Made by a program: the position numbers and the translations under genes. The notes under the pieces were generated by a model, which saw nothing but the letters and a program-made list of their open reading frames with translations, was not told the DNA's origin and made no database searches. Below are positions 7,161 to 43,300 of a DNA stretch of 64,000 bases, piece by piece (positions within the stretch are counted from its first letter, which is position 1; every line of letters starts with the position of its first letter). Origin of the DNA: a virus (taxonomy: Duplodnaviria > Caudoviricetes); the IMG/VR virus record IMGVR_UViG_3300038393_003183, positions 4,656 to 68,655 of that record, one strand, 5' to 3'.

Positions 7161-7162
7161 GC

Positions 7163-7633
7163 ATGCCGTTCGCCTCCCATACCGACCGAATCCGCTCAAC
7201 CCCGGCCACGCGGCGCCGGGACGACAACGTGCGCGCCATCATCACCGCGCTGCGCGAGCGCCACCTGATGCGCGACGAGATCGCAGCCCTGATCAACATG
7301 GGCCGCTCGGGTGCCAACAAGTACGTGGCGATGCTGCGCGAGGCGGGCGTGATCGAGATCGAGCGGTACGTGGCCAAGACGGTTTGGGCCACCGGCAAGC
7401 CGGTGTACCGCCTGAACCCCGACACGGCGCTGGTCGACGGCTACCTGCGCTCGCTCGACACCGGCACCGTCAGCGTGACCAAGCCGGTGCGCGAGATCGA
7501 CCACACGCGCCATGTCCACCTGACCAGCGACGACTGCAACTACCACATCAAGCTGGCCTCGGTGCGCATCCCGCCGCCCGACCCGCTGCTGGCCGCGTTC
7601 TTCGGGCTGGCCAAGCCGGAGCAGCACGCGTGA
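7163..7633 (+). CDS. Winged helix-turn-helix DNA-binding protein
   Basis: MRDEIAALINMGRSGANKYVAMLREAGVIEIER...KPVYRL has wHTH geometry. Confidence 0.7.
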   Translation: MPFASHTDRIRSTPATRRRDDNVRAIITALRERHLMRDEIAALINMGRSGANKYVAMLREAGVIEIERYVAKTVWATGKPVYRLNPDTALVDGYLRSLDTGTVSVTKPVREIDHTRHVHLTSDDCNYHIKLASVRIPPPDPLLAAFFGLAKPEQHA

Positions 7634-9951: not shown

Positions 9952-11201
9952 GCGGCACGATCCTGTTTGGCGACTGCCGCGCCAGCCTGCACCAGATGGC
10001 GGCTGCCGGCGTCAAGGTGCAGATGTGCGTCACCAGCCCGCCGTACTACGGATTGCGCGACTACGGCCACGACGGGCAGATCGGCCTCGAGGAGACGCCC
10101 GAGCAGTACATCGCCCATCTGGTCGAGGTGTTCCGCGCCGTGCGCGAGGTGCTGGCCGACGACGGCACGCTGTGGGTCAACATCGGGGACAGCTACGCGC
10201 AGGCGGGCGGACGCGGCGAGCAGGGGGCCACCAGCGCGCGCCGGGGCCGCAGCAACGTGGCGGCGCAGGAAAAGCGCCAGAGCATGAAGCCGCCCATGGG
10301 CTGCAAGCCGAAGGACCTGATCGGCATCCCGTGGATGCTGGCGTTCGCGCTGCGCGCCGACGGCTGGCACCTGCGCCAGGACATCATCTGGCACAAGCCC
10401 AACCCGATGCCCGAGAGCGTCACCGACCGCTGCACCAAGGCCCACGAATACCTGTTCCTGCTGTCGAAAGGCCCGCGCTACTTCTACGACCATGAGGCGG
10501 TCAAGGAGGAGGCGGTCGGCAACCCGTCGGGCAACAAGGAACGCCGCGCCCGCCCTGACGCCGAGGCGCTGCGCGAGCTGGGATTCCAGCGCGGCGCGCA
10601 GGCGGGATACATCCCATGGCTGGGCGACGAGAAGCGCAATCGGCGCTCGGTCTGGAAGATCGCCACCAAGCCGTACGCCGGCGCGCACTTCGCGGTGTTC
10701 CCGCGCGAACTGGTCGAGCCGTGCATCGAGGCGGGCACCAGCGAGCGGGGCCACTGCCCGCAGTGCGGCGCGCGCTGGACCCGCGTGGTACGCACCCAGC
10801 GCACGCTGCAAGGCGGCAGCGCGCGCGCCGGGCGCTCGCTGGATGAGATCAACGCCAGCGGCAAGCACCTGAACGGAGGCAGCAGCGGCAACCGCACCCT
10901 CAAGGGCGGGCCGGTACTGGCCAGCACGACGCTGGGCTGGCAGCCCGGCTGCGCCTGCGGCACCGAGCCGGTGCCCGATGTGGTGCTGGACCCGTTCATG
11001 GGCAGCGGCACCACCGCCGAGGCGGCAATCCTGCTCGGGCGCGGATACGCCGGCTGCGAACTGAACGAGAACTACAAGGCGCTACAGGACGCGCGCATCG
11101 CCGCCGCCCGCACCGCCGTGGCCACGCCGCCGCTGCTGGAGGACATCGACGTGCGCCAGATGACGATCTTCGACACCGCAACCAGTGAGGAATGCCCATG
11201 A
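9948..11201 (+). CDS. Beta-class amino-methyltransferase (SPPY, N4-cytosine type) with Cys-rich insert
   Basis: TSPPYY catalytic motif precedes DPFMGSGTT (SAM binding); IIWHKPNPMPE; insert HCPQC...CAC. Confidence 0.9.
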   Translation: MSGTILFGDCRASLHQMAAAGVKVQMCVTSPPYYGLRDYGHDGQIGLEETPEQYIAHLVEVFRAVREVLADDGTLWVNIGDSYAQAGGRGEQGATSARRGRSNVAAQEKRQSMKPPMGCKPKDLIGIPWMLAFALRADGWHLRQDIIWHKPNPMPESVTDRCTKAHEYLFLLSKGPRYFYDHEAVKEEAVGNPSGNKERRARPDAEALRELGFQRGAQAGYIPWLGDEKRNRRSVWKIATKPYAGAHFAVFPRELVEPCIEAGTSERGHCPQCGARWTRVVRTQRTLQGGSARAGRSLDEINASGKHLNGGSSGNRTLKGGPVLASTTLGWQPGCACGTEPVPDVVLDPFMGSGTTAEAAILLGRGYAGCELNENYKALQDARIAAARTAVATPPLLEDIDVRQMTIFDTATSEECP

Positions 11202-11611: not shown

Positions 11612-11727
11612 CGCACAGCGACACCGACCTGCTGAAATTCTGGCTGCTGGTGGTCGCCATGCACGCGTTCAGGCTCGGCATCTGCTTCTGGGAAGTGCGG
11701 CGCAAGGGGAACGACGATGAGTCCTGA
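11608..11727 (+). CDS. Small membrane peptide (39 aa)
   Basis: MTHSDTDLLKFWLLVVAMHAFRLGICFWEVRRKGNDDES; coupled to both neighbours. Confidence 0.45.
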   Translation: MTHSDTDLLKFWLLVVAMHAFRLGICFWEVRRKGNDDES

Positions 11728-12925
11728 GCCGTTCACCTTGCACCTGGGCGACTGCGTCGAGGTGATGCGCGCCATGCCCGAGAACAGCATCGACGCCATC
11801 GTGACCGACCCCCCGTATGAGCTGGGGTTCATGGGCAAGGGCTGGGACGCCAGCGGCATCGCCTACAGCGTGGCCATGTGGCGCGAGGCGCTGCGCGTGC
11901 TCAAGCCGGGCGGGCACCTGCTGGCGTTCGGCGGCAGCCGCACCTACCACCGCATGGCGTGCGCGGTCGAGGATGCGGGCTTCGAGATCCGCGACCAGAT
12001 CATGTGGGTGTACGGCGACGGCATGCCCAAGTCGCGCAACATCGCCAAATACGACCTCAAGGCGCAGGCCGCGCAGGCGTGGGCAGGCTTTGGCACGGCG
12101 CTGAAACCGGCCCACGAACCGATCGTCATGGCGCGCAAGCCGCTGGCCGGGACGGTGGCGCAGAACGTGCTGGCATGGGGCACCGGGGTGCTGGACATTG
12201 ACGGCTGCCGGGTGCCGGTGGATGACGCCAGCTACGCCCGCAACTGCTCGGGCGACCGCGGCCATGGCGGCACGCGCAGCGCCGCACAGGAGGGCGCGAC
12301 CGACCTGCACACGGGCGGCGGCAGCGCCGCAGCCGGGCGCTGGCCCGCGAACCTGATCCACGACGGCAGCGCCGAGGTGGTGGCGCTGTTCCCGGCGCAG
12401 GCCGGCGCGGTCGCCCCAGTTCACACCCGACGCGCCGACAAGTTCCGCACCGCCTACGGCGCGTTCGCCGGCAACGTGGACGAGCAGGGCAGCACGTTCC
12501 AGGGCGACAGCGGCAGCGCAGCGCGCTTCTTCTACTGCCCCAAGGCGACCCGCAGGGACCGCAACGAGGGCTGCGAGCACATGGAGAAAAAGCCGCTGCT
12601 GTGGTCTTCCGGCACCAAGAACCCCGGCTCGTTTCAGGCCGAGGGCACCGACAAGAGCAGCCAGAACTTCCACCCGACCGTCAAGCCGACCGACCTGTGC
12701 GCCTATCTAGTGCGGCTGGTGGCGCGCCGGGGCGCGGTGGTCTACGACCCGTTCATGGGTTCCGGCTCGACCGGCAAGGCGTGCATGCGCGAGGGCGTGC
12801 GCTTCGTCGGCTCGGAGCTTGCGCCCGAATACATGGCCATCGCGCAGGCCCGCATCGCGCGCGAGTATGCGCGCATCGGCGCGCTAGAGCCAGCGCCCGT
12901 GCCGCAGCTCGACCTGTTCGCCTGA
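11717..12925 (+). CDS. Beta-class amino-methyltransferase (DPPY, N6-adenine type)
   Basis: VTDPPY, HPTVKP and DPFMGSGST motifs. Confidence 0.9.
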   Translation: MSPEPFTLHLGDCVEVMRAMPENSIDAIVTDPPYELGFMGKGWDASGIAYSVAMWREALRVLKPGGHLLAFGGSRTYHRMACAVEDAGFEIRDQIMWVYGDGMPKSRNIAKYDLKAQAAQAWAGFGTALKPAHEPIVMARKPLAGTVAQNVLAWGTGVLDIDGCRVPVDDASYARNCSGDRGHGGTRSAAQEGATDLHTGGGSAAAGRWPANLIHDGSAEVVALFPAQAGAVAPVHTRRADKFRTAYGAFAGNVDEQGSTFQGDSGSAARFFYCPKATRRDRNEGCEHMEKKPLLWSSGTKNPGSFQAEGTDKSSQNFHPTVKPTDLCAYLVRLVARRGAVVYDPFMGSGSTGKACMREGVRFVGSELAPEYMAIAQARIAREYARIGALEPAPVPQLDLFA

Positions 12926-21714: not shown

Positions 21715-22770
21715 ATGAGCCTGCTGTTTATCGATGGCTTCGACCATTACGCCACGGCCGACCTGAACAAGAAGGGCTGGACCAACACCAGCAACTCGCC
21801 AGGCATGATCGCCCCCACTGGCGGGCGGCGCGGTGGCGGCGCGCTGAGCGGCAGCATGACTGGCGACGGCTTTGAATTCAACGTGCGGCGCAGCTTCACG
21901 TCCGTTGCCACCGTGGTCGTTGGCTGCGCGTTCGCGGCACAGTTCGGCGTCGGTGTCATCGACGGCGGCAACCAGATTCTGCTGCTGCGCGACACCAACA
22001 CCACGCAGGCATCGCTGTACGTGACGTTCGACGGCATCCTCAATGTGTACCTCGGTGACGATGCCTCCAGCCTGATCGCCACTTCCGGCACGCCGGTACT
22101 GACGTTGGACGGGAACTACGACTACATCGAGTGGAAGTACACGGTGGACCCGAGCGCCGGCGCGACCGAGGTGCGCGTGAACGGCGTCACTGTTGCCAGC
22201 GCCTCGGGCGTGAATACGCGTGCGTCGGCCAACAGCAGCGCCAACGTGCTGGTGCTGGGGCACTGGCCGTATCTCTATCCCTACGCTATGACGTTCTGGT
22301 ACGACGACCTGTACCTGCTCAACACCAGCGGCACGGCCAACAACGACTTCCTCGGTGACTGCCGTGTCGTGACCCTGCGTCCCGTGGCCGATGGCAGCTA
22401 CAGCGACTTTGTGCCGTCGAGCGGCACCGCGCACTACGCGCTGGTCGATGACACCACCCCCGACACGACCGACTACGTCAGCAGCCTGACGCCCGGCGAC
22501 AAGGACAGCTACGTGTTCTCGGACGTGACCGGCAGCGGCAGCGTGTTCGGGGTGCAGGTGGTCAATGGCGCGCTCAAGGACGACGGCGGCATTCGCACGA
22601 TGGCCAACCTGGTGAAGTCCGGCGCCAGCGAAGTGCAATCGACGCCGGTCACGCCGCGCACCAGCCTGACCTATACCGCAACGGTCCATGAAACCGACCC
22701 GGCCACCAGCGCGCAATGGACCGTCGCCGCCGTCAACGCCGCCGAGTTTGGCGTGGTGCTGGTGTCCTGA
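21715..22770 (+). CDS. Tail-associated beta-sandwich protein, paralog A1
   Basis: Starts MSLLFIDGFDHY, ends NAAEFGV; paralog of 25134-26186. Confidence 0.75.
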   Translation: MSLLFIDGFDHYATADLNKKGWTNTSNSPGMIAPTGGRRGGGALSGSMTGDGFEFNVRRSFTSVATVVVGCAFAAQFGVGVIDGGNQILLLRDTNTTQASLYVTFDGILNVYLGDDASSLIATSGTPVLTLDGNYDYIEWKYTVDPSAGATEVRVNGVTVASASGVNTRASANSSANVLVLGHWPYLYPYAMTFWYDDLYLLNTSGTANNDFLGDCRVVTLRPVADGSYSDFVPSSGTAHYALVDDTTPDTTDYVSSLTPGDKDSYVFSDVTGSGSVFGVQVVNGALKDDGGIRTMANLVKSGASEVQSTPVTPRTSLTYTATVHETDPATSAQWTVAAVNAAEFGVVLVS

Positions 22771-22786
22771 AAGGAGCGGAACAATC

Positions 22787-23848
22787 ATGACGATCCTGTT
22801 TGTCGGTGGCGAAGAAGGCGATTTCATCAAGACTTCGAGCGCGTGCAGCGTCGATACGGCGACGACGGCGGCGCGCCGCACGACGCTGGCGCGCTGCTCG
22901 CTGAAGGTGTTTTCCAACCTGTCCCTAACAGACAGCTGGAGCGCCACGTTTCCCGGCGGTGGCGTGACCAGCTTCTGGCTGACCGCGCGCTGCTACTACA
23001 ACCGTATCTCGGCCATCGGAAACCTGTTCGCCGCGCGCGGCCTCGCCTTCACCAGCGGCGGCGTGACGCGGCTGGCGGTGTGCCCCGGTGCCGCCGTTGG
23101 CTCCAACATCGTCAGCGCCGGGCTGGTCAACCAGCCGATCGCGCTGTGCAAGATCACTGCCAGCGGCACCAAGACCACGCTGGCCAGCTCCAGCGTGAAC
23201 TTCATGGGGTGGAACACCATGGCCCGGTTCGACGTGCAGGTGCAGAACTACGGCGCAACCGCTACCGTCACCGTCTATCTGGAGGGCGTGCAGGTGCTGA
23301 CCTATACCGGCGACGTGACCACCGATGGCGCAACCAGCCTTGACGGCGTGCGGCTGCACTCGTTCGTCAACAGCGACACAACCAACGCCGAAGCGTTCCA
23401 CTGGTCGGAAGTGATTGCCGCCACCACCGACACACGCAGTGTGGCGCTGGCCACGCTGGCACCGGCCGCCACCGGCAACGCCTTCGCCTGGAGCGGCAAC
23501 GTGGCGGCGCTCAACGAGACCACACTGGACGACACCACGATTGCCAGCAGCACCAGCGCCGGGCAGGTGCTGGAAACCACCGTCACCAACACCACCGTGT
23601 CGGCCACGGCGGCGGTGCAGGCGGTGGTGGTCAGTGCGCGCGCGATGAAGGGCGCAACCGGCCCGACCAGTGTCAACCTGCTGGTGCGCACGGGCGGGGC
23701 CGACTACGCCATCGGGCCGCAGGCGCTGCCGACCGGCTTTGGGCGCCTGCAGGGGGTGTGGGCCACCAACCCGGCCACCGGCGCGGCGTGGAGCGCGAGC
23801 GACCTGACCGCTGCTGGATTCAACATCGGCGTGCAGAGCGCCGCCTAA
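22787..23848 (+). CDS. Tail-associated beta-sandwich protein, divergent paralog A2
   Basis: AAGGAG RBS; similar length and two-domain layout; ends NPATGAAWSASDLTAAGFNIGV. Confidence 0.7.
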   Translation: MTILFVGGEEGDFIKTSSACSVDTATTAARRTTLARCSLKVFSNLSLTDSWSATFPGGGVTSFWLTARCYYNRISAIGNLFAARGLAFTSGGVTRLAVCPGAAVGSNIVSAGLVNQPIALCKITASGTKTTLASSSVNFMGWNTMARFDVQVQNYGATATVTVYLEGVQVLTYTGDVTTDGATSLDGVRLHSFVNSDTTNAEAFHWSEVIAATTDTRSVALATLAPAATGNAFAWSGNVAALNETTLDDTTIASSTSAGQVLETTVTNTTVSATAAVQAVVVSARAMKGATGPTSVNLLVRTGGADYAIGPQALPTGFGRLQGVWATNPATGAAWSASDLTAAGFNIGVQSAA

Positions 23849-24835: not shown

Positions 24836-25134
24836 TACTAGGCAAATTCATCAAGCAGCCGGCCGAGCGCGAAGCCTACGCCATCGAGTACGAGGACGAT
24901 CTGGCCAGCGGCGACACGATCCTGATCTCGCCCGTCATTACGGTGGCGCAGATCGGCAGCGCCGCCGATCCCACGCCGCTGCTCCTCGACGCCACCGACA
25001 CCACCGACACGCGCGCGACCATGTGGCTGTCGGGCGGCACCAACGGCGTGTCGTACAAGGTCACGGTCACAACCACCACCAACTCGGGCCGCATCCTGCA
25101 GGACGAGTTCATCCTGAAGATAAAGGACTACTGA
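24832..25134 (+). CDS. Phage fibre-tail adaptor-like protein
   Basis: FIKQPAE...MWLSGGTNGVSYKVTVTTTTNSGR motif. Confidence 0.7.
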   Translation: MILGKFIKQPAEREAYAIEYEDDLASGDTILISPVITVAQIGSAADPTPLLLDATDTTDTRATMWLSGGTNGVSYKVTVTTTTNSGRILQDEFILKIKDY

Positions 25135-26186
25135 TGAGCCTCTTGTTCATTGATTCGTTCGACCACTACGGCACCAACGACATCGGCCTCAAGTGGAGCG
25201 GTCGCACCAGCCAGACGGTCATCGCGCCGACCAGCGGTCGCCGCGGCGGCGGCGCGCTCAGCGTGGGCAATGCCAGTTCGTGGGCGTTCAAGGACGTGCC
25301 GGGCGCGACCACGCTGATCATCGGCGCGGCCGTCAAGCTCGGTTCGTTCGGGGACGACTTCACCGGCAACTGGATCCTGTACGAGTTCTGGGGCAGCACG
25401 TACATGAACGTGGCCGTCGGCGTGGCGGCAGACGGCTCGGTCATGGCCAAACGCTACCGCTTCAATAGCGACGGCCTGCCGGTGCTGATCGGGCAGTCCA
25501 CCGGCGGCATCGTGCCCCTCAATGTCTACACCTACATCGAGGCCAAGGTGACGTGCCACGGCACCACCGGCGCACTGCAGGTGCTGGTCAACGGGGTGTC
25601 GGTACTGAACCTGACCAACACCAACACCTACAATCCGGTCAACCCCACCACCAACCTGAGCCGCATTTCACTGCGCGCCCCCAATCCGACGCTGGGCTCG
25701 ACGCCGACGCTGTACGACGACCTGTATATCTGCGACACGGCCGGCACCGTCAACCACGACTTCTTTGGCGACGTGCGGGTCGACGTGGCGCTGCCCAACG
25801 CCGACGGCACCTATTCGGAATTCACGCCAGACACCGGCAGCGCCCACTACAGCCGCGTCAACGAGGCGGTGGCCGACCAGCTCAGCTACGTGGCGTCCAG
25901 CACGGTCGGGGCCAAGGATACCTACCAGTTTGCCGACCTGACCAGCATCGTCGGGGTGATCCGCGGGGTGCAGGTGGTCGATGCCGCGCTCAAGGACGAT
26001 GCGGGCGCGCGCTCGATCGGGCACATCGTCAGGTCTGGCGTCAGCGAGCAGTTCTCGGCGGCGATGCCGCTGTCGACCGACCGCAAGCTGTACACGACGA
26101 TCCACGAAACCGACCCGGCCACCGGCATCAAGTGGACGCAGGCAGGCATCAACGCCGCCGAGTTCGGCGTGTACGTGGCCGAGTAA
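25134..26186 (+). CDS. Tail-associated beta-sandwich protein, paralog A3
   Basis: Starts MSLLFIDSFDHY, ends HETDPATG...NAAEFGV. Confidence 0.75.
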   Translation: MSLLFIDSFDHYGTNDIGLKWSGRTSQTVIAPTSGRRGGGALSVGNASSWAFKDVPGATTLIIGAAVKLGSFGDDFTGNWILYEFWGSTYMNVAVGVAADGSVMAKRYRFNSDGLPVLIGQSTGGIVPLNVYTYIEAKVTCHGTTGALQVLVNGVSVLNLTNTNTYNPVNPTTNLSRISLRAPNPTLGSTPTLYDDLYICDTAGTVNHDFFGDVRVDVALPNADGTYSEFTPDTGSAHYSRVNEAVADQLSYVASSTVGAKDTYQFADLTSIVGVIRGVQVVDAALKDDAGARSIGHIVRSGVSEQFSAAMPLSTDRKLYTTIHETDPATGIKWTQAGINAAEFGVYVAE

Positions 26187-33185: not shown

Positions 33186-35249
33186 ATGCCGAACGCTTTC
33201 AAACTCGACCGCTTTCTGGGGCTGATCCCGCGCCTGCCAGACACGCTGTTGCCGCCTACCAACTCGACGGTGGCTGAAAACTGCGACTTTGCCTATGGCG
33301 AACTGCGCAGCCTTGCCGCCAACCTCCCCGAGCATGTGCTGGACCACAACGCGGCCAGCCTGTACACCGACGACGGGGCGCTGTTCTACACCTGGCCGGT
33401 CGATGTCGACGCGGTGCGCTCGCCCATGGCGAACGACACCTTCAACCGCCTGTACTACACCACGCCGGGCGACTTCCGCGTGGCACCGCGCGACGGCATG
33501 CGACCGGGCGGCGGCGAGCCGCCCAGCAGCTACCGGGTCGGCGTGCCCAAGGCGGCCACCGCGCCAGGCACCGTGCTGGCACCCGATGCCACCGTGGTCG
33601 ATACGGCCACCAACGTGGGAGTGGTGCCCGTGTACGCGCACGGTCCCGGCGACCCGACCGGCTTCGAGTACCACGCCGGTGCCGGCGTCGGCCCGGTGAT
33701 CGCCACCCTGACCCTGACGCTGCCCGCAGCGGGCAGCGTGGCCGCGCTGGTGACGTGGCAGTCGGTGTCGGGCATGGCCGGGGACAACTTCAACGTGCGG
33801 GTCGAGCTGACCGCCGACGGCGCGATGATGGTGGCGCAGTCCGACTCGGGCACCGCTGGCTACGTCGAGCCGCACTTCGCCACCGGGTCCATCGCACTAG
33901 ATGCCGGCGAGCATGAGTTCATCCTGCGCTTTGCCAACGACTGGACCCGCGGCTGGTGGTATCTGGGCCAGTGGAGCGTGACGATCCTGCCCGTCAAGGT
34001 CGAGGGCGAGGTGCTGCCCACGCCCGACAAGCCGGTGGACGTGACCCGCGCCTACGTCTGGACCCATGTCAATATCTACGGCGAGGAAGGGGTGCCGTCG
34101 CCGCCGACCGTCATCACGATCCCGTCGGGCAGCGCGGTGGACCTGGACATCAACTACCAGGTGCCGACCATCGACTACGCGCCGATCAAGGAACTGCGCA
34201 TCTATCGCACCCCCGACGCGTCCACGATTGCCGAGTATTTCTACGTCGGCAGCATCAATGTCGAGGGACTGCCGAGCCAGCATTTCAGCTTCCACGACGC
34301 GGTGGCGGCGGCCCAGCTCAACGAGCAACTGGCCTCAATGAACTACTACCCGCCCGATCCCGATCTGGTGGGGCTGACGGCGCTCCCCAACGGCATCCTG
34401 ATGGCATGGAAGGGCAACGAGCTGCACTTCTCGGATGCCTACAAGGCGTGGTCGTGGCCACCGCAGTACGTGCTGACCTTTGGCGACTACGACATCGTCG
34501 GTGCCATCACGGTCGGCTCGTCGGCGCTGATCACGACCACCGGCAAGCCGTTCCTGGTGGCCGGCGTGTCGCCTGACGCGATGACCAACTCGGTGCTCAA
34601 CATCCAGCAGGCCGGGGTCTCGAAGTGGGCGCTGGCCGATCTCGGCGGGGTCATCGCCTACGCCAGCCACGACGGCATCGTGGTGTTCGACGGCGGCCTG
34701 CCGTCGATGGCCATGTCGGAAAATTTCTTCACGCGCGACGTGTGGCGTGCGCGCTACGCGCCAGGGCTGGCGACCATGCACTTTGCCGTGTGGGACGGGC
34801 GCCTGATCGTGTATTCGGCTGACGACACGTTCACCCCGTTCATGATCAGTCTGGACGAGGCGCGCGGGGCGATGACCGAACTGCCGGGGTTGGTGGCCCA
34901 GAGCTCGTTCGTCTCGCCCGTGGCCGACCAGTGCTACATCGTCAACGACGCGGTGCTGCTGCGCATCGGTGGCGGGCCGGACCAGATTACGACCTGGACC
35001 AGCCATACCTTCATCCAGAACCAGCCGTGCAATTTCAGCGTGGCGCAGGCCGTGTGCGACGGCGTGTGGGAACTCCAGTTCTATGCCGACGGCGTGCTGC
35101 GCCACACGCAGGCCGGGGTGTCGGGCAATGTCACGTTCCGGCTGCCAGGCGGGTTCCTGGCCGACCGCTGGCAGATCCGCATCCAGGGCAGCGGCCGCTT
35201 CCGCGAGCTGCGCGTGGCCGAAAGCGCCGCCGACCTGAAAGGCTTGTGA
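33186..35249 (+). CDS. Tail nozzle / tail tubular (stabilisation) protein with inserted beta-sandwich
   Basis: FLGLIPRL...AENCDF..GEL N-terminus; beta-propeller-like middle (FSDAYKAWSWPPQY); 687 aa. Confidence 0.75.
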   Translation: MPNAFKLDRFLGLIPRLPDTLLPPTNSTVAENCDFAYGELRSLAANLPEHVLDHNAASLYTDDGALFYTWPVDVDAVRSPMANDTFNRLYYTTPGDFRVAPRDGMRPGGGEPPSSYRVGVPKAATAPGTVLAPDATVVDTATNVGVVPVYAHGPGDPTGFEYHAGAGVGPVIATLTLTLPAAGSVAALVTWQSVSGMAGDNFNVRVELTADGAMMVAQSDSGTAGYVEPHFATGSIALDAGEHEFILRFANDWTRGWWYLGQWSVTILPVKVEGEVLPTPDKPVDVTRAYVWTHVNIYGEEGVPSPPTVITIPSGSAVDLDINYQVPTIDYAPIKELRIYRTPDASTIAEYFYVGSINVEGLPSQHFSFHDAVAAAQLNEQLASMNYYPPDPDLVGLTALPNGILMAWKGNELHFSDAYKAWSWPPQYVLTFGDYDIVGAITVGSSALITTTGKPFLVAGVSPDAMTNSVLNIQQAGVSKWALADLGGVIAYASHDGIVVFDGGLPSMAMSENFFTRDVWRARYAPGLATMHFAVWDGRLIVYSADDTFTPFMISLDEARGAMTELPGLVAQSSFVSPVADQCYIVNDAVLLRIGGGPDQITTWTSHTFIQNQPCNFSVAQAVCDGVWELQFYADGVLRHTQAGVSGNVTFRLPGGFLADRWQIRIQGSGRFRELRVAESAADLKGL

Positions 35250-35367
35250 TGCTCACAATTCTGAGATTACAATCAGGAAATCGAACACGCGCTTTTACCA
35301 GGGGCGCAAGACTGTAAGACAACACCCCTATAACCGCCCAACCGAGGGCATTTATAGGAGAGCAGCA

Positions 35368-35628
35368 ATGAGCAACGAGATCGGCGCGGTGCGCGCCAAG
35401 ATGACGTGCCACGCGACAGAAACGAGCCGCTGGGGCGAGGGCGCACAGCAGGTGCAGCACAAGGTCAAGCTGGGGGCCGTGTACGGCAGCAACGGCGAAA
35501 ACAAGGACTTCGCGGATGCGACCCCGGCCGGCGAATGCTGGATGAACATCAGCCCCGGTCGGCCCGCCGCCGACTTCTTCAAGCCAGGCAAGAAATACTA
35601 CGTGACGTTCACCGAGGCACCCGACTGA
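35368..35628 (+). CDS. Conserved small phage protein
   Basis: AGGAG RBS; VRAKM...ENKDFADATPAG...FKPGKKYYVTFTEA. Confidence 0.75.
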   Translation: MSNEIGAVRAKMTCHATETSRWGEGAQQVQHKVKLGAVYGSNGENKDFADATPAGECWMNISPGRPAADFFKPGKKYYVTFTEAPD

Positions 35629-35667
35629 CCCACTTGCACGGGCCGATCCGTCGGCCCGTTTTTCCAG

Positions 35668-36135
35668 ATGAAAGTCCTGTTCCTCGACATCGACGGCGTC
35701 CTCAACAGCGACCGCTCGGACCTCGCGTTCGGCGGCCTGCCGGACGGTTTCATGCCGCACGATCTGGCGCGCTTTGATCCAGTGGCGTTGGCTCTGGTGC
35801 GGCGGTTGTGTGCGGAGACGGGCGCCGCAGTGGTGCTGTCCTCGAGCTGGCGGCTGCACCACACGGTGCAGGAAGCGGCTGCCGGCTTGGGCCTGCCCGT
35901 GGTCGACTCCACGCGCGATCTTGGGTCCAGCTTCGGCCGTTCCGACGAAATCACGCTGTGGCTGGCCACGCACCCCGAGGTGACGCACTACGCGATCGTG
36001 GACGACATGGCGCTGCACTGGCCGAACGCGCCGCACTGGCAGCACTTCGTGCGCACCAGCGCCGCCATCGGGCTGACCGCATCCGAGTATTTCAGCCTGC
36101 ATCGGCTGCTGTCGTCGGTTGAGCCGATCAGGTAG
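35668..36135 (+). CDS. HAD-family phosphatase (Swiss-Army-Knife RNA-repair type)
   Basis: FLDIDGVLN, VVLSSSWR, R.DEI..WL and YAIVDD motifs. Confidence 0.85.
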   Translation: MKVLFLDIDGVLNSDRSDLAFGGLPDGFMPHDLARFDPVALALVRRLCAETGAAVVLSSSWRLHHTVQEAAAGLGLPVVDSTRDLGSSFGRSDEITLWLATHPEVTHYAIVDDMALHWPNAPHWQHFVRTSAAIGLTASEYFSLHRLLSSVEPIR

Positions 36136-36277
36136 ATTCTTCTTCTTCGTCGTCCCCGGCGAAACACTCCAACGCCCAGCCAACCATGCGCAGCAGCAGA
36201 ATCATGCCGAACGCGACCCACCACCACACGCTCTTGGTGAATGTGGTAATCAGGATAGCGGCTATCAGAGCGGTCAT
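36128..36277 (-). CDS. Small membrane protein with acidic tail (below the ORF-track cutoff)
   Basis: Hand translation: MTALIAAILITTFTKSVWWWVAFGMILLLRMVGWALECFAGDDEEEEST. Confidence 0.55.
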   Translation of the reverse strand: MTALIAAILITTFTKSVWWWVAFGMILLLRMVGWALECFAGDDEEEEST

Positions 36278-36287
36278 GGTGATCTCT

Positions 36288-36527
36288 CTAGGCTGGTAAT
36301 TGGGTCAGGGTGGCCACTGCGTTCTCGGCCAGGTCGCGGTAGACGCCGTCCTCGCCTTGCAACAGCGGCAGGCTGCCCACCACCATGCCGCCGCTCGGCG
36401 TGCGCAGGGCACCGCCAAAACCGAGCATCAGGCTGCGGCTGTTGGGCGATGCCAGCAGCACCATGGCGCGCACCGACTGGCCGTTATAGTCGAGATGGAC
36501 GAACTGGCCACGGGTGAAGTGGCTCAT
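36288..36527 (-). CDS. Hypothetical protein (antisense block 3)
   Basis: 79 aa; coupled to the upstream gene. Confidence 0.6.
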   Translation of the reverse strand: MSHFTRGQFVHLDYNGQSVRAMVLLASPNSRSLMLGFGGALRTPSGGMVVGSLPLLQGEDGVYRDLAENAVATLTQLPA

Positions 36528-37060
36528 GTCTTCCTCGGGAAATAGGGGAGCGGGCCGGCGATCATGTCGAACTCAGCATGGCCGAGGTCGGCCAGAATAC
36601 GGGCCAGCATCGTGAGGGTCACGCGCACCCCGCCGCCTGGCAGTATGTCGCGCGGACGGATGTGGATGGCACCGCACTCCAGAGCCCGCGCGGTGTCCCA
36701 ACGCGCCCCCCACAGCGCCCCGATGTCCGCAAAGTCGTTTGCCAGATTGATGCTGTAGACGATGCAGGTCCGTCCTGGCTCGCTGTTGAACCGGAACGGC
36801 AGGCGCACCGAATAATAGTTGAGCCAGTGCCGGAGCCGGTCGGCAGGCGGCATGGCGGCCAGCGCGGCAGCTTCTTCGGCGGCGATCCGGCGCTCCTCGG
36901 CCAGTTCGCGCCGCCGCTGCGCGGCGCGCAGGCGCCGCTGTTCCTTGCGTTCCTCACGCTTGCGCGCGGCCGCTTGTTCGCGCTCGTCGCGCAGTGGCCC
37001 CTCTAGCCGGAAGCGGGTGACGGCGGCGATCAGCGCGAGTCGGGCAGGGTCGATCTTCAT
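36524..37060 (-). CDS. Hypothetical protein with charged coiled coil
   Basis: 178 aa; R/E-rich helix followed by a globular C-terminal half. Confidence 0.6.
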   Translation of the reverse strand: MKIDPARLALIAAVTRFRLEGPLRDEREQAAARKREERKEQRRLRAAQRRRELAEERRIAAEEAAALAAMPPADRLRHWLNYYSVRLPFRFNSEPGRTCIVYSINLANDFADIGALWGARWDTARALECGAIHIRPRDILPGGGVRVTLTMLARILADLGHAEFDMIAGPLPYFPRKT

Positions 37061-37254
37061 TGTGGCCTCATCGGTGCGTGGAAGACGAGAGAGCAGTGCG
37101 GGCAGCGGTACAGCATCAGGTTGAAGAACGGGCGCACGGCCTCAGCGTCGGGGTGCCCCCACTGGTAGACATTCTTGTCCTCCATCGGCTCGGCGGCGCT
37201 GCAGGTGCGCTGCGGCAGGGCAGAGGGGGCGTAGACCAGAATCGGGGCGCTCAT
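37057..37254 (-). CDS. Small Cys-containing (Zn-ribbon-like) protein
   Basis: C...YRCPHC; 65 aa. Confidence 0.5.
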   Translation of the reverse strand: MSAPILVYAPSALPQRTCSAAEPMEDKNVYQWGHPDAEAVRPFFNLMLYRCPHCSLVFHAPMRPQ

Positions 37255-37268
37255 GATGTTAATGTCCA

Positions 37269-37277
37269 ATTATGACA
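37269..37277 (-). promoter_or_regulatory. Extended -10 promoter for antisense block 3
   Basis: TGtCATAAT on the minus strand, 14 nt upstream of the ATG at 37254. Confidence 0.45.
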
Positions 37278-37292
37278 CTAGGAAACGACTAA

Positions 37293-37871
37293 ATGGCACT
37301 CGACCAGGGTAACAAAGTCATTCCCGGCATCCCGCTGGGGGCGCTGGCCGGCATTGCCGACCCCAAGGTGCGCGCGGTGCTGACCGCGCTGGTCGACACG
37401 CACAACGTGCGCAACAATCTGGCTGGCGCGGGCGACGAGGCGTTCATCACGCATCTGGAGGCCCAGCAACTGGGCAGCAGCGGGCCAGGCACCGATACCG
37501 CCACCACCCAGCGCCTGCTGGCGCGCTACCTGCACGGCAACGGCGGCGGGCCGTTCACGACCGGCTCGCTGGTCGGGCTGGGCTCGACCACGCTGGTGCT
37601 GGAGCGGCCCATGAACTTTTTCGCCACGGCGGTGTGGGGCGCTGCCGGCATCAGCGCATCCAACACCCGCGTCGAGCTGCACACGGCCGACGGTGCCGTG
37701 CTGCTCAGCCTGAGCGAGTCGGTACGGGCCGGCTATGCGCGCTCGCATGTGGCGTCCAGCAGCTTTTCGCTGGACGCGGGGTCGCACGCGCTGGTGTTCC
37801 ACGCCGGGAACGACTACGGCGGTGCCTACACCATGGGGCAGTGGGCGGTGCTGATCGTGCCGACTTCATGA
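37293..37871 (+). CDS. Tail protein (fibre-attachment-like N-terminus plus beta-sandwich)
   Basis: N-terminal IPGIP...VRAVLTAL...AGDEAFIT; the C-terminal domain is similar to the nozzle insert. Confidence 0.65.
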   Translation: MALDQGNKVIPGIPLGALAGIADPKVRAVLTALVDTHNVRNNLAGAGDEAFITHLEAQQLGSSGPGTDTATTQRLLARYLHGNGGGPFTTGSLVGLGSTTLVLERPMNFFATAVWGAAGISASNTRVELHTADGAVLLSLSESVRAGYARSHVASSSFSLDAGSHALVFHAGNDYGGAYTMGQWAVLIVPTS

Positions 37872-37911
37872 TTATGTGGCTGAAACGGTACAGGACGCCT
37901 AGAATGGGACG

Positions 37912-38169
37912 ATGAGCACCCACATCGACCCCACCACCGGCAAGCTGGACGAGGCCGCACGCGCCTACGGCGAGGGCATCACGGACCTGGCGCGCGAACT
38001 TGGCCTTGATTCCGAAACCTGTTTCGTCATCTTCGGCATGTTCGCGCGCAAGCTGATCGACGTGGCGATTGCGCGCGGTGCCAGCGAGCAGGAGCTGCTG
38101 GAATCTGCGTGCAACGCGTTTTCGCGTGGCCTTGGCATCACGTTTGCTGGTTTGCACAGGAAGCAATGA
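37912..38169 (+). CDS. Hypothetical protein, ITxLARE...FGMFA family (copy 2)
   Basis: Paralog of 31470-31748. Confidence 0.65.
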   Translation: MSTHIDPTTGKLDEAARAYGEGITDLARELGLDSETCFVIFGMFARKLIDVAIARGASEQELLESACNAFSRGLGITFAGLHRKQ

Positions 38170-38178
38170 ACGCGTTTC

Positions 38179-38331
38179 TCATAGGCGGTTGGCGATCATC
38201 TGCATCACAATCAGATGGAACAGCGCCACGACGTAGCGTCCACCCGCTACCGCGTCGATCATCGCGTAGGCGTTGAGGAAGCCGAGCAGGTGCCCGATGG
38301 TGATGGACACGCTGATGCGGCGCTTGCTCAT
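38179..38331 (-). CDS. Small membrane protein (below the ORF-track cutoff)
   Basis: Hand translation: MSKRRISVSITIGHLLGFLNAYAMIDAVAGGRYVVALFHLIVMQMIANRL; ATGA-coupled. Confidence 0.55.
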   Translation of the reverse strand: MSKRRISVSITIGHLLGFLNAYAMIDAVAGGRYVVALFHLIVMQMIANRL

Positions 38332-38654
38332 GCCAGGTCGAACCAGAACTGGAACGCCGACAGCAGGTCGTGGACCGACAACTGAAAGCGCACGTTCTCG
38401 GGATCGGCGGCTTCTTCCATGCTGTCGAAGTGACTGCCGATGAAGGCCATCACCTCCTGCGGCGTGGTCGGCACCTTCGCCGCCTGCCGATCACCGCGCG
38501 CGATGTGCGCCACGACGGCATCGGCCACCATCATCGGCGGCACGCTCTTGTCGATCACGCCGGCCTCGATCAGCTCCTGACGCACCATGGCCATGCAGTC
38601 GGCCATGCCCTGCAAGGTCAGGCGATCATCCGCGCCCTCTGGCCGGTCGCTCAT
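38328..38654 (-). CDS. Hypothetical protein (antisense block 4)
   Basis: 108 aa; coupled; FQLSVHDLLSAF. Confidence 0.65.
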   Translation of the reverse strand: MSDRPEGADDRLTLQGMADCMAMVRQELIEAGVIDKSVPPMMVADAVVAHIARGDRQAAKVPTTPQEVMAFIGSHFDSMEEAADPENVRFQLSVHDLLSAFQFWFDLA

Positions 38655-39004
38655 GCCAGGTCCCGCCCGCTGCCGGCCTTGCCCAGCAGCCGTGCGCGTA
38701 GGTTGATGATCTCCGCGATCAGGTCGTCCACCAGCGGATCCTTGCCCTTCTCGTCGTCAATCCAGCGCGGCAGGTCCACGTCGTCGCGCACGTCGCACGG
38801 TGCCGCCGACCCGACCAGCGCGAAGAAGTGGGAGCAGCAGACGTAGGCGGTCAGCGGGTGGCGCGCCTGAGCCGGATCGTCCCACTGGATTACCTCGCTG
38901 ACCTTATGGGTGGCCGGGCGCCCGCAGGTCATGCAAAACTCGCCTGTGCAGCTTTTGGATACGTGGTGCATGGCCTTGCCCTGATGTGGTAGTGGTGCGC
39001 TCAT
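38651..39004 (-). CDS. Cys/His-rich putative Zn-binding protein
   Basis: CxxC (CMTC), H, CCxH motifs. Confidence 0.6.
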   Translation of the reverse strand: MSAPLPHQGKAMHHVSKSCTGEFCMTCGRPATHKVSEVIQWDDPAQARHPLTAYVCCSHFFALVGSAAPCDVRDDVDLPRWIDDEKGKDPLVDDLIAEIINLRARLLGKAGSGRDLA

Positions 39005-39414
39005 GCCGACGGCGTGCCGGTGTCGATCACCAGCACGTCGTTGTACTGGTTGACCGTGTCCTGCTGCACGGCGCGCCAGCCTTCGACCGCCGCTTTCAGC
39101 GCCCTGTCGGCTTTGAACAGGCTCGCTGTATCGTTGGGTGCGTTCTGGTAGGCCACCAGCGCGTTGGCCACGGCTGCCGCCTTGGCCGTCAGCTCGGCCA
39201 GATCATGCGTGGACCAGCTGGAGTCGGGCGGCGGCGCACCGCGCAGCGCGTTGACGGCATCTTCCATGGCGATGCCCATGCTGATGACCGTGCCCTGGTA
39301 GTGGTTACGCTCTTGTTCGGAAAGCGTCAGCGCCTCGCGCAGCAACGCGTTGGCCTGTTCCAGCTCGGCGGCGCGGGCACGCAGTTGGTCGATCAGGCTT
39401 TCGGCGTCGTTCAT
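39001..39414 (-). CDS. Coiled-coil hypothetical protein
   Basis: GGAG RBS; heptad-rich N-terminus. Confidence 0.65.
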   Translation of the reverse strand: MNDAESLIDQLRARAAELEQANALLREALTLSEQERNHYQGTVISMGIAMEDAVNALRGAPPPDSSWSTHDLAELTAKAAAVANALVAYQNAPNDTASLFKADRALKAAVEGWRAVQQDTVNQYNDVLVIDTGTPSA

Positions 39415-39551
39415 GGGTATTGGCTCCAGACGTTGGTGGTGGGTTACTTGCCCTTGAGCAGGCGGGTTGCCGCGCCTAGCTCGACGCAGTTGGCGGCGAT
39501 CCATCGTCTGGCATGCCGCGCAGGCGCTCCCAGAAAACGGCTTCGTCATCG

Positions 39552-39716: not shown

Positions 39717-39746
39717 TTTCGGCATTTCCGCACAAGAAGGGCCGTG

Positions 39747-40619
39747 ATGTCGCCTGCCGTCACCGATTCCCGCGAGGCTGCCGATGCGGCGCGTGACCGC
39801 GCCGACTTCGACGCGTTCCTGCTCGAAACCGGCCTGTCTGCCGACTGGGTGGCCGCCGTCTCCCAGTACACCCACGACCTGATCCCTATGCCGCACGGCT
39901 GGTGCGTGCAGGTGCTGCCGTCCCCGATTCAGGGACAGGGGCTGTTCGCCACCCACAACATCGGCCCTGGCGAGATCATCGCCCCCGCCCGGCGCGGCAA
40001 CAAACGCACTCCAGCGGGCCGCTACGCCAACCACGCGGCCAACCCCAACGCCTGCGGCGTGCCGAACTCGCAGGCACCGAACGCCGACATCGACCTAGTG
40101 GCGCTGCGCCCGATCCGGCCTGGCGAGGAAATCACGCTCGACTACCGCCAGTCGTTCCGCACCAACCGCAGTCTGGCGGCGGCGGCGCGGCGCGAGCACA
40201 TGACCAGCCTGGTCGCGGCGCTGATGGCGCACGGCGACCGCCGCTCGCCGCCCGTCAAGCACACGCTGTGCAACGGCATGTACATGCGCGAGCTGTTCAT
40301 CCCGGCAGGCACGGTGCTGGCGGGGAAGGTCCACCGCGTGGCCTGCCTGAATGTCTGCTCGGCGGGCGACATCGAGATCGCCACCGAGCATGGGCTGATG
40401 CGGGTGGCGGCCGGCTTCACCGCCGTGTCCGAGCCGTTCACCCAGAAGCTCGGCTACGCCTACGCGGACACGGTCTGGATCAACGTGTTTCGCACCGACC
40501 TGACCGACATCGCCGCCATTGAGCGCGAGGTGTTCATGTCGGACGACGAAATGATCGCCTACCTCGACCCCGAGGGAAGGCATTTCGAGGAATTTTTGAA
40601 ACTGAGAGGTACATCATGA
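39747..40619 (+). CDS. SET-domain plus cupin-fold fusion protein
   Basis: SET motifs SPIQGQGLFA, RYANHAANPN and GEEITLDY; cupin-like HTLCNGMYMRELFIPAG...GKVH. Confidence 0.85.
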   Translation: MSPAVTDSREAADAARDRADFDAFLLETGLSADWVAAVSQYTHDLIPMPHGWCVQVLPSPIQGQGLFATHNIGPGEIIAPARRGNKRTPAGRYANHAANPNACGVPNSQAPNADIDLVALRPIRPGEEITLDYRQSFRTNRSLAAAARREHMTSLVAALMAHGDRRSPPVKHTLCNGMYMRELFIPAGTVLAGKVHRVACLNVCSAGDIEIATEHGLMRVAAGFTAVSEPFTQKLGYAYADTVWINVFRTDLTDIAAIEREVFMSDDEMIAYLDPEGRHFEEFLKLRGTS

Positions 40620-41362
40620 GTGGATGGGCAGCAGGAGCCACCATCGGCGCCTCCCTGATCGGCGGCCTCGCGTCGAAGCACGCCGCCGACAGCGCGCAAG
40701 CCTCGCAGCAGGCCGCGCTCGACGCCAACCGCTGGCAGGGCGAGATCGCCAGGGACCAGTGGGACGACTACAAGCAGAACTACCAGCCGCTGGAGCACCA
40801 GATGGTGCGCAACGCGATGGACTACGACAACCCCGAACACCGCGAGGCGGCGGCATCGGAGGCGCAGGCCGCCGTCTCCAATGAGCTGGCCAAGGCCCAG
40901 CAGCGCCTGTCGCGCACGGTCGGCTACGACCCGTCGTCGGCGGCGGCGCAGGCGGCGCAGGGCAACCTCGCGCTGTCTGGCGCGGCATTGGGCGCGACCA
41001 CCCAGAATGCGGCGCGCAAGCAGGTGCAGGACACCGCCTACGCCCACCAGCTCGACATGCTGGGCATGGGCAAGGGGCTGGTTGCGAATGCCTCTACCGG
41101 GATGGCCAATTCGGCCAGCGCGGCGGCGCAGATCGCGGCCCAGCAGCAGCGCATGGCGGGCGAGCAGGCGGCCGGCGCGGGCATGTTGACCGGCAACCTG
41201 ATCAACGGGCTGTCGAAGGTCAACTGGAGCGGTTTCGGCAACGGCGTCAACAGCCTGTTCAACGAGGCCGGGCCGGGCCTGAACGGCTACACGTTCTACA
41301 ACCGCAATTCGGGCGGCAACGACGGCTACACGCTGCCGAACGGCGAAAGCCTCGGCAGCTAA
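40616..41362 (+). CDS. Internal virion / DNA ejection protein (small)
   Basis: Hydrophobic N-terminus (WAAGATIGASLIGGL), Ala/Gln-rich helices, Gly/Asn-rich C-terminus. Confidence 0.75.
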   Translation: MSGWAAGATIGASLIGGLASKHAADSAQASQQAALDANRWQGEIARDQWDDYKQNYQPLEHQMVRNAMDYDNPEHREAAASEAQAAVSNELAKAQQRLSRTVGYDPSSAAAQAAQGNLALSGAALGATTQNAARKQVQDTAYAHQLDMLGMGKGLVANASTGMANSASAAAQIAAQQQRMAGEQAAGAGMLTGNLINGLSKVNWSGFGNGVNSLFNEAGPGLNGYTFYNRNSGGNDGYTLPNGESLGS

Positions 41363-41374
41363 CAGGAGCGCACC

Positions 41375-43300
41375 ATGGGATTGGGACTGAACTGGGCCGG
41401 CATGGGCCAAGGCTACCTCGCCTACAAGGACGACCAGCGCCGCCAGGCTGCCGATGCGCGCCAGGCCGAGGACGACGCGCAGGCGCGCAAGGATCGCGCG
41501 TTTCTGGAGGAACAGCGGTCGCGCCAGCGGTATGACTGGTCCGAGGCCGACCGCATCCGCAACCAGGCCAAGCAGGCGGCAGCCGACTACTGGAACGACC
41601 ATGACGACGGCAGCAGCGCCGCCAGTGCCAGCGCCGCACCGACCGCCGCGCCCACCACAGCACCTGCGAGTGCCGCCCCGGCTGCGACCGACCTGCAAAT
41701 GCAGACCACGCCCGTCCCCGATCCGGCCGGCACGATCACGCCGCTGTCGTCGCCGGCACCGCGCAAGCCGGTGCCGGTCGATGCGTCCCTCGCGGGAGCG
41801 CCGGGCAGCGCCGTCGCCGCTGATGCGGCAGACACGGCACCGACCGCCGCGCCACAGCCGGCCAACCCGTCTGGGCTGCTGGTGCCGGGCAATATCGACC
41901 TGGCGCACCGCCCGCGCGTGACCAACCCCGACGGGTCGGTCAGCACGGTGCGCTCGGTTTCGGTCGGCACCGATCAGGGCGAAGTGCTGATCCCGACCGT
42001 CAGCGACGACGGCCGCATCATGTCGGACAGGGAGGCGGTCGATGCCTACCGCCAGAGCGGGCGCCACCTCGGCATCTTCCAGACGCCCGAGCAGGCCACC
42101 GCGTATGCCCAGCAGTTGCATGCCGATCAGGCCGCCGCAGTGGGCGCGCCGACCGAAGCGCCGGCCCAGCCAGGCGGCGTGGCGGCCCCGCGCCGCCTCG
42201 GCAATATCCTCGACATGCAGCGGTATGTGCTCGAACAGGCCGCGCGCCGCGGCGACGTGGCCCCGCAGGCATACGCGCAGACCCGCGCGTTGCTCGACAA
42301 GATGCGCGCCGAAGGCATCACGACCGCGCTCGACGCGTTCGCGCGCGGCGACTACCAGGGCGGCATCGATGCCTACAACAGCGCCGGCGTGGCCAACGGC
42401 GCGCGCTTCGTCAAGGCGGTCGACGGCACCACCACGCTGCCCGACGGGCGCGTGCTGCCGACCAAGCTGGTCACGATCATGAACGGCAACGGCGTGCCGG
42501 GCGTGATCGACACCACCGCCGACCGCTACAAGATGCTCGACCTCGCCAAGCAGATCGAGCTGTACGACAGCGCCAAGAAGGACCAGAGCGAATCCAGCTA
42601 CAAGGACCGCATGGCGGGCGTGGCCGAGCGTCAGGCTGGTGCGGCAGAAAAACAGGCCAACACGATGGAGAACTACCGCCGCGACCAGGCGCGCAACGCA
42701 GCCGATGCCAACGTGGTGCGGCTGCTGACCGGCGGCGGTCGCGGGGCCAAGATGGACGACAAGGCCATCAAGGAGGCGCTGGACCTGAACGAACACCTGT
42801 ACAGCTACCAGGACGACACCGGCAAGCAGGTGCCGATGCCCGCTGCCAAGTCCCTGTACGGCAACATGATGCTGCGGCTGGGCGACCCCGACAAGGCGTA
42901 CCAGGTGATGACGGCGCTGCGCGCCGATGCGCTCAAGCAGGCCACCGACCCCGAGACCGGCAAGGTGGACCCGGCCAAGTTCATGCAGTCGTGGACCAGC
43001 GGCATCGCCGCCGCCGACCAGCGCATGCGCACCGCGCCGCCCGCCGCCAAGCTGGGCGCTGCCCCCGCGCCCGCCCAGCCTGCACCCAAGCAGCAGGCCG
43101 CCGCCGTCAAGCCGCCGCCAGCCAAACCGCTGCCGTCTGGCCAGATGGTGCCCGAGCCGCCGCGCGAACGCGTCTGGATGGGCAACCAGTTTGTCCCCAA
43201 TCCCGCCTATGCCGAATGGCAGCGCCAGTACGGGGCCGCGTGGGCGGCCCAGAACAAGGCGTTCGCGCAGCAGATGGAACGCGCCACCAGCCATTTCTGA
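41375..43300 (+). CDS. Internal virion / DNA ejection protein (medium) with an inserted globular domain
   Basis: GMGQGY N-terminus; Pro/Ala linkers flank a GNIDL..RP.V.NPDGS.STVRS domain. Confidence 0.7.

Follow-up and report, generated by a model that had tools for sequence, protein, structure and literature searches.

The gene at 39747–40619 encodes a phage protein in which a minimal SET domain, devoid of the SET-I region, is joined to a divergent cupin barrel, and members of this family sit almost universally directly upstream of the first gene of the DNA-ejection module. The reading that we favour, tentatively, is that the product is a late-made protein-lysine methyltransferase, tethered by its cupin domain, which would act on ejection or other internal virion proteins. 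The gene comes from an IMG/VR provirus record (68.7 kb, estimated to be 97% complete, about 68% G+C), of which a stretch of 64,000 nucleotides, here called the window, was analysed. The open reading frame lies on the plus strand and specifies a 290-aa product (P0001) with the SET domain in its N-terminal half and a small monocupin in its C-terminal half. Its surroundings in the window are as follows.

About 2.6–27 kb of the window: terminase, portal-like, major head and tail genes.
33186–35249: nozzle or 'internal virion protein' gene.
Up to 39549, minus strand: an island of small genes.
39736–39741, plus strand: Shine-Dalgarno-like GAAGGG, read from the sequence, 5 nt 5' of the ATG.
39747–40619, plus strand: SET-cupin gene, 290 aa (P0001), which heads the plus-strand ejection operon.
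40616–41362, plus strand: E1, the first ejection or internal virion protein, 248 aa, assigned from phrog_8003, alignment A4 and the neighbours of homologues.
41375–43300, plus strand: E2, the second ejection-module protein, 641 aa, with no family match and with the same position in the relatives L086–L088.
43325–63715, plus strand: E3, a giant 6796-aa protein of the polyvalent type with an N-terminal glucosaminidase and an ART-PolyVal domain.

Homologues share the methionine at 39747 as their start (alignment A2, 48 relatives with the same domain order or with a single domain), and this coincidence of N-termini identifies 39747 as the true start. An upstream ATG at 39513 was considered as a start and rejected, because the homologues begin at the Met of 39747; the longer reading frame from 39513 would overlap the minus-strand gene at 39001–39549. 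No sigma-70-like promoter was seen in the 197-nt intergenic region upstream of the gene. At its 3' end, the TGA (40617–40619) and the ATG of E1 (40616–40618) overlap in the sequence ATGA, and the SET-cupin gene is translationally coupled to E1. The E1 protein matches phrog_8003, 'virion structural protein' (E 2e-20), and has a hydrophobic, Gly/Ala-rich N-terminus. The neighbours that SET/cupin homologues have in the E1 position are annotated 'DNA ejection'. NCBIfam holds no model for P0001, E1 or E2. The close relatives L086, L087 and L088 keep the same layout as the window. The third protein of L086, which contains an SLT domain, is only 392 aa long, so the giant protein of the window is an expanded E3.

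Placement directly upstream of E1 is near-universal. In 62 of 78 IMG/VR loci an E1-family gene begins between -24 and +5 nt from the stop codon of the SET gene; as 8 of the remaining 16 loci reach the end of their contig less than 650 nt past the stop, this amounts to 62 of 70 informative loci. In 61 of the 78, the upstream region contains a gene for a P22 gp10-like tail-hub protein, at a distance of 70 nt to 6 kb. Annotated phages show the order gp10-like gene, needle or small ORFs, SET/cupin gene, 'DNA ejection' gene and two further internal proteins, which parallels the P22 order 10-26-14-7-20-16. This order is seen, for example, around gp30 of Rhodoferax phage P26218, gp49 of Pseudoalteromonas phage PH1, ORF13 of Ralstonia phage RSK1 and gp04 of Vibrio phage VvAW1, the last two being cupin-only proteins. 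In RSB3, a T7-like Ralstonia phage (Autographiviridae), the T7 gene 13 slot, with the tail tube B gene on one side and a gene matching Pfam T7_gp14 on the other, is taken by a cupin-only homologue (hhalign 99.8%, E 5e-29). The SET-only protein P0249 is encoded by a gene that overlaps a T7_gp14-family gene by 4 nt, and a giant LPD22 protein comes next.

Since fusions, cupin-only and SET-only proteins are found in P22-like and T7-like contexts, the cupin, the SET domain and either fusion stand in for one another in a single gene slot directly upstream of the first ejection gene. The SET and cupin modules share a transcript with E1 and in most cases are coupled to it in translation. The original prediction had described an overlap of the stop codon with the ATG of the ejection gene, a coupling to that gene and a position like that of T7 gp13. 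The ATGA overlap, the E1 spacing across the loci and the RSB3 homologue placed exactly in the gp13 position agree with it on all these points. Synteny of this kind establishes association with the ejection module and is silent on what is methylated.

T7 gp13 (PF11090) and P22 gp14 (PF11039, DUF2824) hold the same slot as the SET-cupin gene. They carry the Pfam/RefSeq labels 'probable scaffold protein' and 'head morphogenesis', respectively, and we take them to be scaffold or morphogenesis factors that are presumably not major virion components. To our knowledge, neither is known to bear a SET domain. No homology of the cupin to P22 gp14 or T7 gp13 was detectable, with hhalign probabilities of 0.2% and 0.5%, respectively, and no Pfam match. 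As separate observations, P22 gp14 has a weak glyoxalase-like match in the PDB (E 0.008), and an Atlas cluster of 317-aa viral proteins, 20% of whose members carry Phage_T7_Gp13, resembles the cupin structurally and offers a lead. A literature search on P22 gene 14 and T7 gp13 returned nothing usable.

An AlphaFold2 model of P0001, built on alignment A2, has a mean pLDDT of 94.4 and a pTM of 0.78. From the N-terminus it comprises helices (residues 8–40), a six-strand SET core (48–137), a helix (141–162), a beta-barrel (163–266) and short C-terminal helices. Because the two domains of the model match the SET domain of MLL1 and small cupins, the fusion of SET and cupin in P0001 is genuine. The parts of the gene that encode these elements, and the cupin residues discussed below, are located as follows.

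39768–39881, plus strand: pre-SET helical segment, residues 8–45 (alignments A1 and A2; model helices 8–28 and 32–40).
39888–40157, plus strand: minimal SET core, residues 48–137 (Pfam, PDB profile matches, VIA, conservation).
40167–40232, plus strand: long inter-domain helix, residues 141–162 (AlphaFold2 secondary structure).
40233–40544, plus strand: small monocupin beta-barrel, residues 163–266 (Foldseek and VIA fold, TM1459 alignment, conservation).
40260–40262, plus strand: family-specific His172.
40326–40328, 40332–40334, 40344–40346 and 40461–40463, plus strand: cupin ligand positions Lys194, His196, Cys200 and Tyr239.
40545–40616, plus strand: C-terminal helical tail with helices 266–273 and 281–286 (alignments A2 and A3, model).

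In all architectures the pre-SET helical segment immediately precedes the SET core, and the SET-only P0249 is no exception. The C-terminal tail is common to close kin and stand-alone cupin proteins (A2, A3).

Residues 86–133 of P0001 score 40.1 bits with the Pfam SET family (PF00856; E 5.3e-10), for which the curated cut-off is 22.4. The SET motifs are GQG at residues 63–65 (39933–39941), NH at 95–96 (40029–40034) and NPN at 99–101 (40041–40049), the last two forming the stretch N95-H96-A-A-N-P100-N101, and EEITLDY at 127–133 (40125–40145), which includes D132 and Y133. Among 313 non-redundant relatives, S59, G63, G65, N95, H96, E128 and Y133 are kept in 100%, and R87, T88, G91, R92, P100 and N101 in at least 95% (P100 and N101 in at least 96%). 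The conserved positions include the SAM-binding and catalytic residues of SET enzymes. Such conservation of catalytic residues fits selection for catalysis, and the SET module is, by its residues, apparently catalytically competent.

The family profile matches MLL1, EZH2 and vSET in the PDB (best E 4e-12, for MLL1), and Foldseek also pairs the N-terminal domain of P0001 with the MLL1 SET domain. The MLL1 structure 7u5v_A superposes on residues 48–134 of the predicted model with a VIA Z of 11.0 and an rmsd of 2.4 Å over 82 residues (35% identity). P0001 has three motifs in common with PBCV-1 vSET (A612L) and with SET domains of the MLL/EZH2 type: the GxG loop, NH(S/A)xxPN and E-x-x-x-x-Y, the last of which contains the catalytic tyrosine. 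Like vSET, it is virus-encoded, small and without pre-SET or post-SET zinc clusters. In contrast to vSET, it is smaller, SET-I and the flanking strands (about 35–45 residues) being replaced by an invariant segment. It further differs from vSET and MLL by an N-terminal helical segment of its own, the cupin fusion, its origin in a phage late operon and the lack of histone targets.

In known SET enzymes, SET-I forms one wall of the lysine channel. The corresponding region spans about 11 residues in the family profile versus about 45 in MLL1, where the match falls into two separate HMM blocks, and the 82 superposed model residues cover a span of 123 residues of MLL1. Based on the short gap region and this superposition, SET-I is replaced in the family, and its place is taken by the invariant segment A-P-A-R-x-G-x-R-T-P-A-G-R. 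The SET motifs (GxG, NH..NPN and EEITLDY) had at first been described as complete; they are so and lie where they had been predicted, but the domain as a whole is minimal and lacks SET-I. The loss of SET-I could compromise catalysis, and a SET domain of this kind may depend on a partner protein or may be a binder that transfers nothing. The pre-SET helical segment (residues 8–45) may substitute for SET-I.

The predicted fold of the C-terminal half (40233–40544) confirms the cupin-like domain that had been placed at about 40250–40530. Foldseek matches the barrel to the RmlC-like cupins 3fjs (E 3e-7), 9bwf, 4e2g, KdgF and TM1459, at E-values of 3e-7 and above, and VIA-align of residues 163–266 of the predicted model gives Z of 10.6–12.5 to many monocupins. 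Its structural neighbours include the non-enzymatic dimerisation cupins CENP-C and Mif2p. The Pfam cupin models yielded no family for the C-terminal domain at E up to 5, and a cupin profile made from 53 domain sequences (A5) reaches PDB cupins only weakly (E about 0.03, TM1459). TM1459, KdgF, DddK and Reut_B4087 have the same double-stranded beta-helix of about 100 residues (Z 10.6–12.5 with the predicted model). In contrast to these small metal-binding monocupins, P0001 has His at one of the four canonical ligand positions and has an extra, nearly invariant His172; its context is phage morphogenesis and theirs is metabolism.

The Mn-cupin TM1459 has the metal ligands His52, His54 and His58, and in the weak but sensible A5 alignment (E about 0.03) these residues face Lys194, His196 and Cys200 of P0001. 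The motif-2 ligand position is Tyr239, placed from motif spacing and not from alignment. P0001 preserves the motif 1 spacing G-x5-[H]-x-H-x3-[E/H]-x6-G; its set of His ligands in motifs 1 and 2 is incomplete. In most cupin-SET proteins, positions 194, 196, 200 and 239 read H, Q/H, H and L/H. His172 is present in 93% of family members and Glu240 in 76%, but P0001 has Ala at 240. The HxD/E...H triad of 2OG/JmjC enzymes is absent from the roughly 100-residue cupin of P0001, whose ligand strand reads K-V-H, and no JmjC entry is among the structural matches listed for P0001. Judged by these residues, the canonical cupin metal site is degraded in P0001, and since its canonical ligands read K/H/C/Y, a second metal-dependent activity appears doubtful. 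A metal site could be formed by His172, His196 and Cys200.

A phmmer search against 1.84 billion representatives recovered 3687 clusters at E ≤ 1e-3, 1412 of them at E ≤ 1e-10. The two domains occur in either order: of 263 homologues, 211 are cupin-SET and 40 are SET-cupin, 10 have the cupin alone and 2 the SET domain alone, and the 80 IMG/VR loci include 74 cupin-SET and 4 SET-cupin. P0001 and its close kin are SET-cupin, and the arrangement cupin-(helical segment)-SET prevails among the relatives (A1). The best domain-order trees imply 9–22 switches, a figure that comes from poorly resolved trees of domains of about 100 columns and is compatible with a single origin. A search of 185,579 bacterial species genomes gave only 26 loci, many on short MAG contigs and mostly in Burkholderiales (Cupriavidus, Paraburkholderia, Burkholderia, Comamonadaceae), and the Atlas clusters of the family are 80–100% viral; the family is essentially phage-borne. 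A few relatives of 500–553 aa bear an extra N-terminal domain of about 250 aa, for which no Pfam, PHROG or PDB sequence match was obtained. The AlphaFold2 model of such a long relative is poor (pLDDT 65, with the N-terminal domain mostly below 60).

In the reading that we favour, the SET-cupin protein would be an accessory enzyme of the ejection (internal-virion-protein) module. Encoded at the head of an operon that continues with E1, E2 and the giant E3, it would be produced late, alongside the ejection proteins. The SET domain, which retains all residues for both steps, would bind SAM and transfer the methyl group. The cupin, serving in binding or dimerisation and not as a second catalyst, would keep the enzyme at or close to its targets; the K/H/C/Y ligand positions and the non-enzymatic structural neighbours of the CENP-C/Mif2p type argue for this role. 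The enzyme would then methylate lysines in ejection proteins or in other proteins inside the virion, before or during procapsid loading. The E1 family contains no invariant lysine in alignment A4, so that E1 does not stand out as a substrate for all members; the Lys residues that recur after its hydrophobic N-terminus are uninformative. We infer that the protein is an active enzyme, what it acts on, when it is made and that its cupin serves as an adaptor, and the choice among ejection, virion and host proteins as substrate is purely conjectural. One speculation is that lysine methylation shields internal proteins from host proteases or from lysine-directed defence chemistry. A broader proposition, that podophages widely methylate their own ejection or internal proteins, or those of the host after ejection, by means of a minimal SET domain usually fused to a cupin, is conceivable and rather doubtful.

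The same genes could be read as those of a packaged effector, which we regard as unlikely. The protein would be loaded with the ejection proteins through docking of its cupin and ejected, and its SET domain would methylate host proteins for take-over or anti-defence, so that it would parallel, as a small protein of its own, the enzyme domains of the giant polyvalent protein. Its gene heads an operon that otherwise encodes ejected proteins, and the translational coupling to E1 fits co-assembly. The downstream E3 is of the polyvalent type with an ART-PolyVal domain, and SET-only and cupin-only relatives precede giant LPD22 or DarB-like proteins. Polyvalent proteins tie enzymatic domains to the DNA-entry apparatus, as in the 6796-aa ART-PolyVal neighbour of P0001; in contrast to them, P0001 is a separate small protein. 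Against an effector role stand the slot analogues T7 gp13 and P22 gp14, annotated as scaffold or morphogenesis proteins and presumably minor or absent in the virion, and the literature search found virion proteomics for no family member. Moreover, the survey of polyvalent proteins by Iyer et al. (2017, PMC5512222) covers neither SET nor cupin. Quite unlikely is a protein that serves only as a chaperone or scaffold, aiding assembly of the internal core or of the ejection proteins in the manner of T7 gp13 and P22 gp14, with a SET domain that binds peptide and transfers nothing. The equivalence of the slot and the loss of SET-I suit such a role, and many phages have the cupin alone in the slot, which makes SET dispensable for what the slot does. 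However, the 100% conservation of N95, H96, Y133 and the GxG loop over the 313 sequences would be hard to explain without catalysis.

It had been predicted that P0001 is an enzyme with two activities. A metal-dependent cupin (carrying out hydroxylation, isomerisation or a similar reaction) and SET methylation would then act on the same substrate. For the family at large this has some appeal: most members keep His at 194 and/or 196 and 200, together with the nearly invariant His172 and Glu240, HHQH.. and HHHH.. patterns prevail in cupin-SET proteins, the repeated fusion of SET and cupin fits coupled chemistry, and some relatives have a third, N-terminal domain. P0001 and its subgroup, however, read K194/H196/C200/Y239 with Ala at 240, the 2OG-dioxygenase triad and a Pfam cupin match are both lacking, and small cupins are often non-enzymatic. 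These findings weaken the two-activity prediction and make it improbable for P0001. The PHROG-derived labels would instead make the protein a structural tail fibre or adhesin. The C-terminal half (140–273) matches phrog_12032 (E 1.8e-29) and phrog_24280 (E 5.4e-27), and the names 'short tail fiber protein' and 'tail fiber adhesin' appear in GenBank/RefSeq records. Yet the predicted fold is a globular cupin of 100 residues that has no fibre-like repeat, collar or trimeric coiled coil, and the gene sits among internal-protein genes, away from receptor-binding genes. No experimental basis for the label was found, the R8W paper that uses it having no proteomic or structural data and itself noting the lack of proteomics, and a tail fibre is very improbable.

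A full-text literature search found no study of the phage SET/cupin family, in agreement with the original prediction, which knew of no characterisation, and no report of activity, SAM binding or virion proteomics for any member. Some members are already labelled 'SET domain containing protein' in databases, so SET in phages is known at the level of annotation. What is new is a minimal SET domain without SET-I, its fusion in either order to a divergent cupin and its fixed place in the ejection module. SET enzymes are best known from chromatin modification and from a few effectors of bacteria, and the literature searched contains no report of a SET role in tailed-phage morphogenesis or DNA delivery. 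Homologues are carried by the cultured phages P26218 (gp30) and PH1 (gp49), so a direct test is feasible.

The slot occupants T7 gp13 and P22 gp14 are themselves barely understood, and a large family is now tied to the same slot. If the enzyme is active, it would add a new type of post-translational modification, placed either on ejection or internal proteins or on host targets as the phage enters, and would provide a biochemical handle on the assembly or protection of the ejectosome. It would also be the smallest natural SET scaffold, one without SET-I. Were the broader proposition on podophages to hold in either form, the making or use of the apparatus for DNA ejection would involve protein-lysine methylation as a step so far overlooked.

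The giant ejection protein of the window, E3, is a protein of polyvalent type. A glucosaminidase domain (PF01832, E 5e-18) occupies its N-terminus, and an ART-PolyVal domain (PF18760, E 4e-17) lies near residues 5550–5700. At the counterpart position in L086, a locus of a close-kin phage, there is an SLT protein of just 392 aa. The preceding ejection protein, E2, gave no match in the family search; it contains a long Ala/Pro-rich linker followed by a compact motif block (G-N-I-D-L-x-x-R-P ... L-I-P-T-V), which resembles the kind of conserved domain seen in internal proteins of phages.

Window 41375–43300, +, E2 (641 aa)
Window 43325–63715, +, E3 ORF (6796 aa) with the Pfam domain matches

Between the nozzle/tail genes and the SET-cupin/ejection operon lies an island of small, mostly minus-strand genes. 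In the relatives, the island carries antitoxin-like genes (HI1420-type, MqsA-type, and HTH) and BrxR-like WHD genes. The island is common to three related phages, and it is therefore no one-off insertion.

Window 35352–39549, mostly minus, island of small genes
L086 3071–9879, island counterpart
L087 (second close-kin locus) 4442–9382, island counterpart

Elsewhere in the window, the head/packaging region contains two DNA methyltransferase genes, and the tail region contains three paralogous genes assigned to PHROGs without an assigned function.

Window 9672–11201, +, DNA methyltransferase (phrog_67, E 1e-68)
Window 11717–12925, +, DNA methyltransferase (phrog_67, E 1e-76)
Window 21715–22770, 22688–23848, and 25023–26186, +, paralogous tail-region genes (phrog_2448 / phrog_6368)

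The slot of the SET-cupin gene is also occupied by relatives of 500–553 aa with three domains, in the order N-terminal domain (~250 aa), cupin, and SET (P0282, P0286, P0287, P0290, P0304, P0306, P0310, P0311, P0314, P0317, and P0320). The N-terminal domain has invariant D-N-x-S and D-P-D motifs, and its Rossmann-like start is reminiscent of GT-A glycosyltransferases. It had zero matches in Pfam, PHROG, or PDB, and its AF2 model was of poor quality. Separately, a very divergent stand-alone cupin gene is present in viral contig L069, ~3.2 kb upstream of the cupin-SET gene of that contig.

L095 230–1861, three-domain relative
L097 5405–6910, three-domain relative
L069 4408–4761, divergent stand-alone cupin gene

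P22 gp14 matches the glyoxalase-family structure 3ct8 weakly in sequence (E 0.008).

L005 (P22 locus) 8911–9366, gene 14 (gp14, DUF2824)

An Atlas structure cluster of viral 317-aa proteins matches the cupin domain structurally (TM by query, 0.76); among the members of this cluster, 20% contain Pfam Phage_T7_Gp13. The cluster may represent a cupin-gp13 fusion, which, if true, would tie together both occupants of the slot, cupin and gp13.
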